Shown here piece after piece: positions 11,653 to 59,159 of a DNA stretch of 64,000 bases. Each line of letters opens with the position of its first letter. The stretch's first letter is position 1. Position numbers and translations under genes: made by a program. This stretch comes from Clostridia bacterium (lineage in GTDB: Bacteria > Bacillota > Clostridia > TANB77 > CAG-508). The stretch lies in the NCBI GenBank assembly GCA_017429505.1, contig JAFROW010000008.1, positions 161,549 through 225,548 on the forward strand, written 5' to 3'. The notes beneath the pieces were generated by a model, which worked only from the letters and a program-made list of their open reading frames with translations, did no database searches and had not been told where the DNA came from.

Positions 11653-11790
11653 TCTATCTCCTCCTTTTTTTGTTACAATTCACAGTCCAAATATTTTAAA
11701 TTTTACTAATAAACTGTCTGTTAATCAAAGCATAAATATTTCGGCTCTATAGTTATAAAAATTTAAACACATATATATTATATTTTTTCA

Positions 11791-11987
11791 AAAAAATTTG
11801 TATAGCATTTTTTAGACTAAATCAGTTGTTTGAAACAGGCATAAATTATACTTATATTATGCGTGAAAACAAAAAATAAGCTTTTTTATTTGCTTTTCTC
11901 TTTTCTTTTGGCTAAAACTATCGTAAAAATGCATTACAGTAAGTCCTCATGTTACTATCAAAAATAGGGGTGTATAGAAATTTTTTT
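11791..11987 (+). repeat. MITE-like intergenic repeat, copy 1 (~197 bp), with imperfect terminal inverted repeats AAAAATTTGTATAGCA ... GGGGTGTATAGAAATTTTT
   Basis: Its ends and length match the elements at 32899-33095 and 58850-59047 in the opposite orientation, and the shorter copy at ~52120-52245. The element separates the T-box leader from the downstream operon. Confidence 0.5.
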
Positions 11988-12074
11988 AAAAAATACTATT
12001 AACTATTTAGTAAAATAACCAACTTTTCAAATACTTATCAAATGTAAATTGTAATCTTTTTTTTGTTTGGATAA

Positions 12075-12385
12075 GACCAACATAATCTTTTTCAAAACAA
12101 AAACAAGCCATTCCTGTATTTAGGACGAAATGACTTGTTCCGCGGTACCACCTAAGTTAGTAACCTTTATATTATATAAAGCACATTTTGATTACTTACG
12201 TATCTACTTTCTCTTTATTTGTTACTCTCTTTACTATCTTTAACGCAGATATACGGCAAGGCTTACTTTTAAAAGGAAATAAAAATCACATCTATTTTCT
12301 GCCAAGCAACTATTAAGGTGATAAAAAATAATTTTTACTTACTTTGCTCTCAGCTTATGCAAAGCTCTCTGTTAGATATTGTATT
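12075..12385 (-). promoter_or_regulatory. T-box riboswitch leader (probably Ile-responsive, regulating the DUF1653-membrane protein-ileS operon)
   Basis: Minus strand reads ...aacuuaGGUGGUACCGCGGaacaagucauuucguccuaaauacaggaauggcuuguuuuuguuuu. The T-box core GGUGGUACCGCGG is followed by the terminator hairpin caagucauu/aauggcuug and a U-run. Upstream stem I has an AGAGAGC start. Confidence 0.75.
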
Positions 12386-12558
12386 ATTTTCCTTGTCCTT
12401 AATTTTGTTTTTTACTTGATATGTTGTATATAATAGCACAATTTTTTTACAATTTCAATAGTTTTAGAAAAAAATCTGTAAAAATAGCTACAATCTTGTT
12501 CCATCTTTATTGAGAACAAACAAATATAAATTCTATATAATAATAGATTATTCTTATC

Positions 12559-13665: not shown

Positions 13666-13754
13666 TTTTCTTCCTCCTTCGTATATATAAAAACATATAC
13701 ATATTATATTTTTTCATAATTATTGTCAATAACTTTTATAGTTTTTTATTCAAT

Positions 13755-14846
13755 CTAGTTATTCACACCATGTGCATACATTGGAGTATTTTTGTCTATT
13801 GCTTTAAATTTATATCCATTCTTTTTTGCATATTTTATAATTTTTGATAAAGCATTTAAAGTCTTTGTATTTCCTGCAAAATCATGACAAAGTACCATAT
13901 TTCCTCTTCTTTTACTTAGATTCTTTGTAACATTTTTGTATACATCATTTGAAGTTTTTGCTCCACCTGCATCTCCTGATGATACATTCCAATCAAAATA
14001 TCTAAATCCTCTTGACAACATTTCTTTTGTAAGTACGCTCATTATTCCTTTAGAATAGTGTCTACTAACTGTATTTGAGCTTCCTCCTGGGAATCTCATA
14101 AATTTTGTCCTAACCCCTGTTAACTTATATATTTTATCTTGTAATTTATAAACATTGTTTAAAAATGCTTTTTTAGATTTATATATTTTTGAATATTCGT
14201 GTGAATAGCCATGTATTCCTATTGTATGCCCTTCTTTTACAATTCTTTTTATTAATTTTTCGTTTGACTTGCTGTAATTCAAAACAAAAAATGTTGCTTT
14301 GACTTTTTCTTTTTTTAATATATCTAAAACTTTTGGAGTTATTGTGCTACTTGGTCCATCATCAAAAGTTAAGTATATTACTCCTTTTGTTGATTTATTA
14401 TCACTTGGTAGATTTTTAACCTTTATTGTGCATTTTAATTTTTTATCTCCAACTTTAACCTTTATCTCTGCTGTTCCTTTTTTCTTTGCAGTTACTTTTC
14501 CTTTTGAATTAACTATTGCAACTTTTGTGTTTGAGCTTTTCCACCATTTTGCTTTTTTGTTTGTTCCTTTTATTTTTAATGTGTATTTTTCTCCAACATA
14601 AAGTGTCTTTTTGGTTTTGTTAAGACTTATTTTGTCTTTTTTTGTTTCAGATTTTGTTGTTTCTGTTTCACTTTTGTTGTTTTGATTTGATTCAGTCTCT
14701 TTTGACTCTGTATGTATAATTTCTTCCTGTTGTGTTTCATTTTTATTTGTATTTTCTACCTCTGCTGCATGTGTTCTATATTGTGCTAAATTTAATATTC
14801 CTAATATTGTTATAAATATAATTACTACTTTTAATACTTTTTTCAT
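13755..14846 (-). CDS. Polysaccharide/peptidoglycan deacetylase (NodB family) with N-terminal signal peptide and Big_2-like Ig domain
   Basis: NodB motifs LTFDDGP, HGYSHE and LCHDF. Big_2-like segment YVGEKYTLKIKGTNKKAKWWKSSNTKVAIVNSKGKVTAKKKGTAEIKV. Paralog of 14947..16176. Confidence 0.85.
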   Translation of the reverse strand: MKKVLKVVIIFITILGILNLAQYRTHAAEVENTNKNETQQEEIIHTESKETESNQNNKSETETTKSETKKDKISLNKTKKTLYVGEKYTLKIKGTNKKAKWWKSSNTKVAIVNSKGKVTAKKKGTAEIKVKVGDKKLKCTIKVKNLPSDNKSTKGVIYLTFDDGPSSTITPKVLDILKKEKVKATFFVLNYSKSNEKLIKRIVKEGHTIGIHGYSHEYSKIYKSKKAFLNNVYKLQDKIYKLTGVRTKFMRFPGGSSNTVSRHYSKGIMSVLTKEMLSRGFRYFDWNVSSGDAGGAKTSNDVYKNVTKNLSKRRGNMVLCHDFAGNTKTLNALSKIIKYAKKNGYKFKAIDKNTPMYAHGVNN

Positions 14847-14946
14847 CTTTTATTACCCCTTTTATTTCATCTTTTATATTTTCTAATATTTTTTATGTGT
14901 CTCTATTTTATTTTTTTATTAGTCCAAAAATATTTATGTATAAAAT

Positions 14947-16176
14947 TTAGTTATTTACATGTTGTGCATACATTGGTGTATCGTCATCTATTCGTGCAAA
15001 TGTATAACCTTCTTTTTTTGCATATTTTATTATTTCTGGTAATGCTTCTAGTCCTTTTTTGTTTCCTCCAAAGTCATGCATTAAAACCATATTTCCTCTT
15101 TTTTTGCTCAAATTTTTTGTAACATTTTTGTAAACGTCTTTAGCATTTTTTGCTCCACCTGCATCTCCTGAAGAAATGTTCCAATCATAATATTTAAAGC
15201 CTTTTGCAAGCATTTCTTTTGTAAGTTCTGTCATAATTCCTTTACAATATTTTCTACTTACTGTATTTGAACTTCCTCCTGGAAATCTTGTATACATTGT
15301 TTTTACACCTGTTGACTTATATATTCTATCTTGTAATGTGTACACATTTTTCATAAATGTTTCTTTAGATTTATATATTTTTGAATATTCATGTGAATAT
15401 CCATGAATTCCAATTGTATGACCTTCTGCTACAATTCTTTTTAATAGATGTTCATTGTTATCGCTATAATTTATAACGAAAAATGTAGCTTTTACATTTT
15501 CCTTTTTTAATATGTCTAAAATTTTTGGTGTTATATTTGCGCTTGGCCCATCATCAAAAGTTAGCCAAATAACTCCTTCAGTTGATTTGTTCTTTTCAGT
15601 TGTAGCTGAGGTATTGACTGCATTTTGCTCGTTTACCTTAGGTTCGTTATTTGAATTTTGATTTGTTTGAGCTTGATCTCCATTAGTGTTTGCTTTTTGA
15701 TTTTCACCTGTCTGAGCATTATTTGCATTTGCTTTTTGATTTTCACCTGTCTGAACATTATTTGTGTTTGTTTCTTGATTTTCACCTGTTTGAGCATTTT
15801 TTTCGTTTACTTCTTGATTATTTTCTATTGTTTGAGCATTATTTGTATTTACCTCTTGGTTATTTTCTGTTGTTTGAACATTATTTGTATTTACCTCTTG
15901 GTTATTTTCTACCTGAATATTGTTTGTATTTGATTCTTGGTTATTATTTGCAGTAGCTTCTTTACTTGCATTTGTTGATTCATTCGTAGTTGTTTTCCAT
16001 ACATTTTCCTCAGTTGCAACCTGAGTTTGCGGATTCTCAGAAACAACTTCAGCAGCTTGTTTTTTACTTGTTAAAACCTTTGTTAAAACTGCAATTATTA
16101 TTACTAAAATTAAAGCTGATATTGCTGTTATTATTACTTTTGAAATATTAAGTTCTTTGTACTCCATTTTTCTCAA
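14947..16176 (-). CDS. Polysaccharide/peptidoglycan deacetylase (NodB family) with N-terminal TM anchor and an Asn/Gln/Thr-rich tandem-repeat linker
   Basis: NodB motifs LTFDDGP, HGYSHE and LMHDF. The catalytic domain is about 70% identical to 13755..14846. The linker repeats NNQEVNTNNVQT(T/G)E. Confidence 0.85.
   Translation of the reverse strand: MRKMEYKELNISKVIITAISALILVIIIAVLTKVLTSKKQAAEVVSENPQTQVATEENVWKTTTNESTNASKEATANNNQESNTNNIQVENNQEVNTNNVQTTENNQEVNTNNAQTIENNQEVNEKNAQTGENQETNTNNVQTGENQKANANNAQTGENQKANTNGDQAQTNQNSNNEPKVNEQNAVNTSATTEKNKSTEGVIWLTFDDGPSANITPKILDILKKENVKATFFVINYSDNNEHLLKRIVAEGHTIGIHGYSHEYSKIYKSKETFMKNVYTLQDRIYKSTGVKTMYTRFPGGSSNTVSRKYCKGIMTELTKEMLAKGFKYYDWNISSGDAGGAKNAKDVYKNVTKNLSKKRGNMVLMHDFGGNKKGLEALPEIIKYAKKEGYTFARIDDDTPMYAQHVNN
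15690..15960. repeat. Tandem ~39-bp (13-codon) coding repeat, about 7 copies, inside the deacetylase gene
   Basis: The direct repeat attttcacctgtctgagcattatttgcatttgctttttg and its variants are visible on the + strand. Confidence 0.8.
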
Positions 16177-58802: not shown

Positions 58803-58849
58803 ATTACGCTAACTTAAAATAATATTACAGCATAATATAATATTTTTTT

Positions 58850-59047
58850 AAAAAATTTCTACGCACCCCCTTTTTTGGCTATAACGTGAGGATTAACCAT
58901 AACTAATTTTTAGAGCATTTTTAGACTTAAATCTAGGATTTTTCTTTAAACAACTCTTATTTAAGAATTTCGAAAGAAATATAAGTATTATTTTAATACA
59001 CTTCGAAGCTCTTGTTTGGTTCAAAAATTGGCATAGAAATTTTTTTT
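58850..59047. repeat. MITE-like intergenic repeat, copy 4 (~197 bp), with terminal inverted repeats AAAAATTTCTACGCA / TGCCATAGAAATTTTT
   Basis: aaaaatttctacgcaccccctttttggctataacgtgaggattaacc...ttttagagcatttttagac...caaaaattggcatagaaattttttt is alignable with 32899-33095 along its length. Confidence 0.55.
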
Positions 59048-59159
59048 ATAAACTTTACTTTTAACCTGTTTCGTGTTAAAATTAAATTATATAAAACACA
59101 GGTATAATTAATTATTTTCATTAAATTATGTGACTTGAAGGAAAGGAATATAAATAAAA

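Follow-up and report, generated by a model that had tools for sequence, protein, structure and literature searches.

The 64,000 nt window analysed here, a stretch of contig JAFROW010000008.1 from a member of the Clostridia, carries on its minus strand a T-box leader of isoleucine specificity and, farther on, three genes encoding a DUF1653 protein, a predicted membrane protein and an isoleucyl-tRNA synthetase (IleRS; gene ileS), all co-oriented with the leader. The leader is an ordinary Ile-specific, transcription-attenuating T-box riboswitch, and it is accompanied by an insertion that contains an element resembling a MITE (miniature inverted-repeat transposable element). A preliminary description of positions 11653-12385 had placed the T-box core and terminator at ~12075-12150 of the minus strand, and this is confirmed (core 12152-12140, terminator 12139-12093); that range holds both, but the promoter (12458-12430) and ~30 nt at the start of the leader fall outside it. 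The DUF1653 gene had been put ~420 bp downstream, with its start at 11652; the start and the co-orientation stand, whereas the spacer, from the terminator end to the DUF1653 start codon, measures 441 nt. The membrane protein and ileS follow in the order then given (11353..11096 and 11082..7930). The window locus is referred to below as WIN, and orthologous loci or related contigs as L001 and so on. The features of the leader and operon are as follows.

12430..12458, minus strand: leader promoter, TTGAAA, 17-nt spacer and TATTAT, with TG upstream of the -10 hexamer (sigma-70-type, 10/12 match)
12093..12414, minus strand: T-box leader RNA (Ile), comprising the Rfam match 12414..12118, the terminator 3′ arm and the U-tract
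12309..12408, minus strand: Stem I, paired as in the cmscan alignment and including the AG bulge, the distal loop and the specifier loop
~12370-12366, minus strand: AG bulge AGAGA of Stem I (cmscan alignment)
12354-12348, minus strand: distal loop GCUGAGA of Stem I (cmscan alignment)
12320..12322, minus strand: specifier codon AUC (Ile), then A (12319) and the stem CCUU, so that AUC-A-CCUU occupies 12322-12315
12154-12140, minus strand: T-box sequence AGGUGGUACCGCG, carrying the UGGU bulge
12152-12140, minus strand: T-box core GGUGGUACCGCGG
12121..12154, minus strand: T-box sequence and antiterminator (UAGGUGGUACCGCGGAA...UUUCGUCCUA), from the RF00230 alignment
12093..12139, minus strand: intrinsic terminator, a 13-bp stem AACAAGUCAUUUC/GGAAUGGCUUGUU (12139-12102) with a 12-nt loop and the U-tract UUUUUGUUUUG ending at 12093
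12073..12089, minus strand: small hairpin (GUAAAAGGGGACGAUUAUCUUUUAC type) directly 3′ of the terminator, also in L001, L002, L086, L095 and L096
11395..11665, minus strand: DUF1653 gene (11652..11395, 85 aa; PF07866, 5e-23) and its ribosome-binding site (RBS) AGGAGGAG (11665-11658)
11096..11353, minus strand: gene for a hydrophobic (predicted membrane) protein, 85 aa, with its own RBS
7930..11082, minus strand: ileS, type-2 IleRS, 1050 aa, with domains tRNA-synt_1, Anticodon_1 and DUF5915

The T-box leader and its orthologues

When the 64-kb window was scanned with the Rfam models using cmscan at the gathering threshold, no family was reported. In E-value mode, which admits matches below the gathering score (93 for RF00230), a full-length match to RF00230 (model 1-219) appeared at 12414..12118 of the minus strand with 66.7 bits and an E-value of 9.2e-14, the sole Rfam match in the 64 kb at E<=1e-3. 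The leader is thus missing from a default scan because its score falls below the threshold, and the shortfall comes from an expanded Stem II/III region together with degenerate K-turn (kink-turn) and S-turn positions. The Stem III loop (GUAAC...GUUAC, 12156-12229) is ~40 nt longer than that of L002, and in L001 (~3070-3190) it is ~100 nt longer, an expansion that contributes to the sub-threshold score. In the model alignment, UUUUUU-AUC-A-CCUU forms the 3′ side of the specifier loop, with a purine after the codon as usual and CCUU closing the lower stem, which identifies AUC (Ile) as the specifier. The NCCA end of a tRNA having discriminator A73 would, we presume, pair with the UGGU bulge. The terminator overlaps the 3′ half of the antiterminator, AACAAGUCAUUUC being common to both. 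The small hairpin that follows the terminator lies at 2685-2710 in L096 and is duplicated in L095 (2633-2705, two copies).

A scan for orthologues with one genome per species gave 80 loci (81 counting the window), all 80 from metagenome-assembled genomes of uncultured low-G+C gut or rumen Clostridia. A T-box core is found upstream of ileS, with or without DUF1653, in 75 of the 81, and in five of the remaining six the locus is truncated by a contig end. The specifier motif ATC-A/C-CC stands at the specifier position in 73 of the 75 orthologous leaders; the preliminary description had expected AUC, AUU or AUA, and AUC is what the window and these leaders carry. When the Rfam pairing of Stem I was projected onto 66 distinct leaders, 86% of the cells were paired and 15 of the 21 pairs showed double-sided changes, values reached in 0 of 500 shuffles, while slid controls gave 34-50% paired. 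The antiterminator helices were 98.8% paired in 68 distinct orthologues (0 of 500 shuffles), and a hairpin with a U-tract lies within 110 nt of the core in all 75 leaders (median -18.5 kcal/mol). This last result comes from per-sequence detection, which replaced a covariation analysis of the terminator on a MAFFT alignment, where helices of varying length misalign; likewise, RNAalifold predicted no pairs on the gappy Stem I alignment, and explicit pair counting on the Rfam-derived structure was used instead. At the level of sequence, AGAGA and distal loops of the GCUGAGA/GGUGAAA type are kept across the 66 aligned leaders, and a TTGAAA-17-TAwTAT promoter with its TG occupies the equivalent place in L001, L002, L086, L095 and L096.

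Since the T-box lies upstream of ileS in 75 of the 81 loci and DUF1653 comes between the two in ~35 of the 75, the ancestral layout of the clade is a T-box, an optional DUF1653 gene and then ileS. We note that five leaders (L005, L007, L015, L029 and L032) carry an insertion of 25-50 nt just 5′ of the AUC specifier (alignment columns ~110-160), apparently folding into two small hairpins (GGC..GCC and AAGA..UCUU), an unusual site for T-box expansion.

The inserted block and the MITE-like repeat

The non-coding spacer in front of the first gene has a median length of ~90 nt among the 75 orthologous loci and is longest in WIN (438 nt) and L001 (436 nt). Comparison with orthologous loci lacking the insertion had been proposed earlier, and four such empty sites are available: L002, whose IleRS is 93% identical to that of WIN, L086, which carries the identical small membrane protein, L095 and L096. 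Aligned to WIN, their short spacers (50-95 nt) match on either side of one gap, which lies between ...UCUUAUCCAAAC and AAAAAAAGGAGG, just upstream of the DUF1653 RBS. The 441-nt spacer is a derived state. The inserted block and the copies of the repeat in the window are listed below.

11675..12055, minus strand: inserted block (~381-393 bp), absent from L002, L086, L095 and L096, occupied in WIN and L001
11780..11997, minus strand: MITE-like element, copy 1, ~218 bp with its full inverted repeats (198-bp core 11987..11790)
32892..33094, plus strand: MITE copy 2, full, with a perfect 15-nt inverted repeat AAAAATTTCTACGCA / TGCGTAGAAATTTTT (32902-32916 / 33080-33094)
58838..59057, plus strand: MITE copy 3, full
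52143..52246, minus strand: short MITE derivative, ~104 bp, with both ends kept (arms 52143-52161 / 52228-52246, 89% complementary)

Direct repeats AACAAAAAAA(A)G border the block at 12067-12056 and at 11674-11663 and could be a target duplication or simply the A-rich region before the RBS; a short (12-nt) outer inverted repeat, TTACAATTTACA / TGTGAATTGTAA, flanks the block as well. The MITE-like repeat makes up only about half of this ~385-bp block, and the empty sites miss the whole block, not just the ~218-bp element. The ~197 bp of spacer that had been assigned to a first repeat copy accordingly hold as a repeat (the 198-bp core within ~218 bp), but the inserted DNA is larger, ~385 bp. Neither the window nor ~0.9 Mb of related loci contained a second copy of the outer ~170 bp of the block; the 12-nt inverted repeat and the A-rich direct repeat suggest the idea that this part might be an older degenerate element that was hit by the MITE. 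Two Logan contigs of the same species (L082 and L083) begin 29 nt inside the MITE 3′ end, as expected where repeats break assemblies.

The repeat itself has the size, the inverted ends, the non-coding content and the multiple dispersed copies of a MITE, so that the earlier identification as MITE-like stands. Its terminal inverted repeats are ~25 nt long (AUAUUUUUU.AAAAAAUUUCUAYRCA, core AAAAAATTTCTAYRCA), lie within A/T runs and are conserved in the family alignment, the arms of the other copies being 27-44 nt long and 73-78% complementary. Between them the 5′ half (~85 nt) is conserved and the 3′ half variable; the element has no open reading frame (ORF) of 50 aa or more, and the short ORFs differ between copies. 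No consensus RNA structure was found in the conserved 5′ half on either strand, and none that covaries beyond the ends. A scan of metagenome contigs with a 20-nt end pattern gave seven matches, four of which are chance matches in high-G+C contigs, and true family members are present in two other organisms of 27% G+C (L091/L093 and L094). The repeat is far beyond chance, given an orthologous copy in L001 that is 89% identical and these members in unrelated metagenome contigs. A narrow search of the window and of the seven metagenome matches found no autonomous insertion sequence with MITE ends. A role as a promoter carrier that always faces a gene start was considered for the element and rejected: the four window copies and that of L091 do face one, but the L094 copy faces the 3′ end of a convergent gene.

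Control of the DUF1653-ileS operon

The Ile T-box probably reads through into the operon of DUF1653, membrane protein and ileS genes, with control by isoleucine retained despite the insertion. As read from the sequence, transcription would start at the conserved promoter (12458-12430), and the GAU anticodon of uncharged tRNA-Ile would pair with the AUC specifier in Stem I, while the NCCA end of the tRNA would pair with the UGGU bulge of the T-box sequence; the antiterminator would thereby be stabilised and RNA polymerase would pass the terminator (12139-12093). In the common ancestor of WIN and L001 the ~385-bp block presumably landed between this terminator and the DUF1653 RBS, stretching the untranslated spacer from ~50-95 nt to 441 nt. 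No terminator-like hairpin other than that of the T-box was found on the sense strand from the promoter to DUF1653 (12470..11601), and since the block has no terminator, read-through transcripts would pass on through it into the operon. It is most likely that they do so and that regulation is intact.

Three lines of sequence evidence agree with this reading. One is the spacer itself, with no further terminator and no unusually stable structure (z=0.72). Another is the leader promoter, which is conserved in all the close relatives (L001, L002, L086, L095 and L096), whereas the promoter-like hexamers of the insertion differ between WIN and L001. The third is the comparison of WIN with L001. Stem I is 95.9% identical between the two and the antiterminator/terminator 96.1%, as against 89% for the MITE, 88% and 83% for the flanking spacer on its 3′ and 5′ sides (87% for insertion and spacer together), 78% with 66 gap columns for the variable middle of the leader, and 71% for the 4-fold degenerate sites in ileS. 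The functional parts of the T-box have 8 differences in 198 positions and the insertion 54 in 423 (Fisher p=5e-4), an evolution more than 3 times slower; the few T-box differences fall in loops or in the U-tract, and promoter, specifier, T-box bulge and terminator are intact in both loci. With the T-box parts 96% identical and the insertion 87%, the riboswitch appears to have stayed under selection, which favours read-through over uncoupling. Moreover, related species keep the T-box with unrelated repeats of 100-260 bp in the same spacer, so such insertions are evidently tolerated.

Several observations weigh against the retention of control or blur the case for it. The leader scores below the gathering score of its own family. 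The K-turn consensus UGA...GAG reads UUA...UAG in the window and the S-turn consensus AGUA...GAA reads AGGA...UUU; the canonical S-turn letters are missing across the whole clade in the alignment of 66 leaders. The insertion, at 87% compared with 71% for the 4-fold sites, is not a clean neutral clock. Recombination is evident among the WIN, L001 and L086 lineages, in which the distributions of the insertion and of the membrane protein ORF conflict. Promoter-like sequences occur on the sense strand of the AT-rich insertion (TATACA-16-TATAAT at 11804-11777 and TTGATT-17-TAAAAT at 11728-11700) and inside the membrane protein ORF (TTGAAA-17-TATTAT at 11227-11199), so some T-box-independent transcription is possible. 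Finally, Rho-dependent termination or RNase cleavage could act in the 441-nt untranslated stretch.

The preliminary description had left the choice between read-through and uncoupling, and the evidence favours the former, the sole terminator being that of the T-box and the T-box parts being conserved. Uncoupling would mean that T-box transcripts die in the spacer, that a new promoter drives ileS and that the leader is a decaying relic. The exceptional length of the WIN and L001 spacers and the promoter-like hexamers within them agree with this, but a relic leader would hardly remain 96% identical in its T-box parts, with changes confined to loops or the U-tract, while the insertion diverged by 13% and the variable part of the leader by 22% with many indels; every working part from promoter to terminator is intact in both lineages, the spacer offers no terminator, and a cis-acting leader that lacked a target would not be maintained. 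We regard uncoupling as very improbable. Dual control is a milder proposal, in which the T-box works and the insertion or the membrane protein ORF adds at least one weak constitutive promoter, freeing a share of DUF1653-ileS expression from dependence on tRNA-Ile charging. The three sense-strand sites given above match the consensus at 10/12, 9/12 and 10/12 positions, respectively, and the L001 element has a near-consensus TTGATA-17-TATAAT (11/12; L001:3400-3428) aimed at DUF1653-ileS. Such matches are common in DNA of 27% G+C, however (21 found compared with 13 +/- 4 in shuffles), no promoter-like site of the insertion is common to WIN and L001, and the WIN hexamer corresponding to the L001 TATAAT is TGTAAT, without the key A at position 2. 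To judge from the orientation of the L094 copy, the element likewise does not regularly sit where a promoter carrier would. We consider dual control unlikely, albeit with some real weight.

A further possibility, compatible with read-through and retained control, is that the element has been co-opted as an RNA module, its inverted-repeat ends of ~25 bp forming a long A-U duplex in the read-through transcript whose processing, perhaps by RNase III, could determine how stable the operon mRNA is or how well it is translated. Processing of this kind has been described for the Correia elements of Neisseria. In the predicted spacer fold the terminal repeats do pair, conservation between WIN and L001 is higher for the element than for the variable part of the leader (89% and 78%; p=0.006), and in other species this slot repeatedly holds unrelated palindromic elements. 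Yet the element has no conserved or covarying structure beyond its ends, the full spacer RNA is no more stable in its fold than shuffled sequence (z=0.72), and the higher conservation may stem from recombination or AT-biased mutation. We therefore give co-option only a slight probability.

Several known systems invite comparison. The window leader shares with the RF00230 ileS class having an AUC specifier (Bacillus subtilis and other Firmicutes) the Stem I specifier loop with AUC and a purine, the AG bulge, distal loop, F-box and UGGU bulge, and the mutually exclusive antiterminator and terminator upstream of ileS. It differs in its sub-threshold score (66.7 as against 93), its degenerate K-turn and S-turn and its expanded Stem III loop, and in having 441 nt of non-coding DNA, rather than a few tens, before a first gene that encodes DUF1653. 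In actinobacteria, Sherwood, Grundy and Henkin in 2015 reportedly described Ile-specific ileS T-boxes that act in translational regulation and stand before eukaryote-like/type-2 IleRS genes; those have a truncated Stem I and sequester the RBS, whereas in the window leader Stem I is complete and is combined with a classical terminator and its U-tract. MITEs that are transcribed together with a leader are well known from other bacteria, the Correia elements of Neisseria and the RUP and BOX elements of Streptococcus pneumoniae being examples. The window MITE resembles these in its traits (100-220 bp, non-coding, multi-copy, intergenic, with terminal inverted repeats) and in lying between a promoter or leader and a gene, where it is presumably co-transcribed. 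It showed no similarity to anything identified; a partner transposase was likewise not found, nor did the analysis yield signs of promoter or processing activity. Searching the literature for MITEs within riboswitch leaders gave nothing directly comparable. T-box elements upstream of ileS2, which encodes a type-2, mupirocin-insensitive-type IleRS, have been reported in Priestia megaterium, where ileS2 accompanies ileS1 as a second copy, is induced by stress and has a proposed CodY site (bioRxiv 10.1101/2022.02.09.479832). Both systems combine a T-box with a type-2 IleRS; in the window the type-2 gene is the sole ileS seen, and no insertion is described in P. megaterium.

That a T-box precedes a type-2 ileS is confirmed here but already published, and none of these results changes the understanding of T-boxes or of MITEs. 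They matter in practical ways. The Rfam gathering threshold misses the Ile T-box of this clade, so that standard annotation leaves its ileS without a regulator. Further, an attenuation riboswitch apparently copes with mobile DNA, several hundred bases long, that separates the terminator from the gene it controls; distance to the first ORF is therefore a poor ground for rejecting links between riboswitches and genes.

Operon genes, other repeats and further features of the window

The IleRS matches the TIGR00392 ileS equivalog model with 965 bits (cut-off 621), and its residues 855-1049 are covered by PF19302 (DUF5915), the type-2 C-terminal domain (3.6e-74). It also matches the NCBIfam MupA and MupB models at ~1e-302, yet under their 1900-bit exception cut-offs, and so it is not MupA or MupB proper. 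By these matches the synthetase is a chromosomal type-2 IleRS, for which mupirocin insensitivity, a class trait, is predicted. No other ileS was seen in the window, and the gene stands at the head of a conserved locus of housekeeping-like character. That a T-box governs a type-2 IleRS, a point earlier singled out for confirmation, is supported by PF19302 and the likeness to MupA/MupB, together with the T-box before ileS in 75 of the 81 loci. In about half of the clade DUF1653 opens the Ile T-box/ileS operon, in which tRNA-related genes (SpoU methylase, Sua5/YrdC) also occur at times; the association offers a weak lead connecting DUF1653 with isoleucine or tRNA-Ile biology.

The membrane protein ORF has 12 homologues, none of them named, and lies between DUF1653 and ileS in each of the three loci looked up for it, L086 (896-1153), L095 (3001-3234) and L096 (3001-3288); it is not present in loci L001-L080. 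It is part of a three-gene layout specific to a sub-clade. Its DNA is 98.8% identical between WIN and L086, compared with 88-95% for the flanks (88-93% for DUF1653 and the leader), a pattern that suggests recent exchange by recombination.

The genes found between T-box and ileS vary among the orthologous loci: there is a SpoU-family methylase in L003 (3430-3945), a Sua5/YrdC-family protein in L030 (3327-4001), the series ispF, GHMP kinase, ispD and then DUF1653 in L004 (1514-3622), and a 198-aa protein with no assigned function in L008 (3039-3635). Sua5/YrdC makes the precursor of threonylcarbamoyladenosine (t6A), which occurs as t6A37 in tRNA-Ile, and its linkage to an Ile T-box may be meaningful.

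At least four other small palindromic or terminal-inverted-repeat-bearing repeats, mutually unrelated, occupy the slot between terminator and RBS in related species, several having copies elsewhere; none resembles the window MITE. They are located as follows.

L039:3651-3912 (two tandem copies), L051:3797-3926, L078:3653-3786, L071:3555-3689, L045:3778-3905 and L063:2034-2161: ~130-bp palindromic unit, directly 3′ of the terminator
L042:2193-2329: ~113-bp palindrome, with a second copy at L041:8395-8502
L038:3848-3987, also L043 and L055: ~140-bp element with 33-nt inverted ends and a copy elsewhere at L025:7984-8133
L024:1735-1911 as against L034:3843-3982 and L068: ~150-180-bp palindrome, in opposite orientations
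L019:3510-3682, also L028 and L035: ~170-bp repeat, with copies at L041:95-209 and L073:7223-7273

Palindromic elements were counted in the slot in 20 of 99 cases, compared with 9.9% expected from intergenic length (p=0.0016), a crude figure that is not relied on: some of the short matches are probably terminator-like hairpins, the related loci are non-independent, and the window's own element was missed. The safe conclusion is that small-repeat insertions have been tolerated repeatedly in this slot. A bolder proposal, which we hold to be decidedly doubtful, is that small palindromic mobile elements, of which at least five unrelated families occupy the slot in 80 species, land there by preference and may turn functional within the leader; if so, they might serve as hairpins for mRNA processing or stability or as new promoters, as in the L001 copy, and the ileS T-box would have been repeatedly rewired by MITEs.

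Over its whole length the window has a G+C content of ~27% and a strongly negative GC skew, and the minus strand carries the majority of its genes; ARAGORN found no tRNA or tmRNA genes in the 64 kb. At 39480-42729 of the minus strand there are six tandem paralogous small genes with a conserved N-terminal hydrophobic segment (MENASKALIIAG...), which show up as a 98-nt repeat family with spacings of ~410-1000 nt. The ORF at 14947..16176 contains seven tandem repeats of 39-42 nt (15643-15942), and a 300-nt duplication of 77% identity is shared by neighbouring genes (13738-14037 / 14930-15229); on a contig of the same species (L081), the gene with the first duplication copy has Big_2 and polysaccharide-deacetylase domains.

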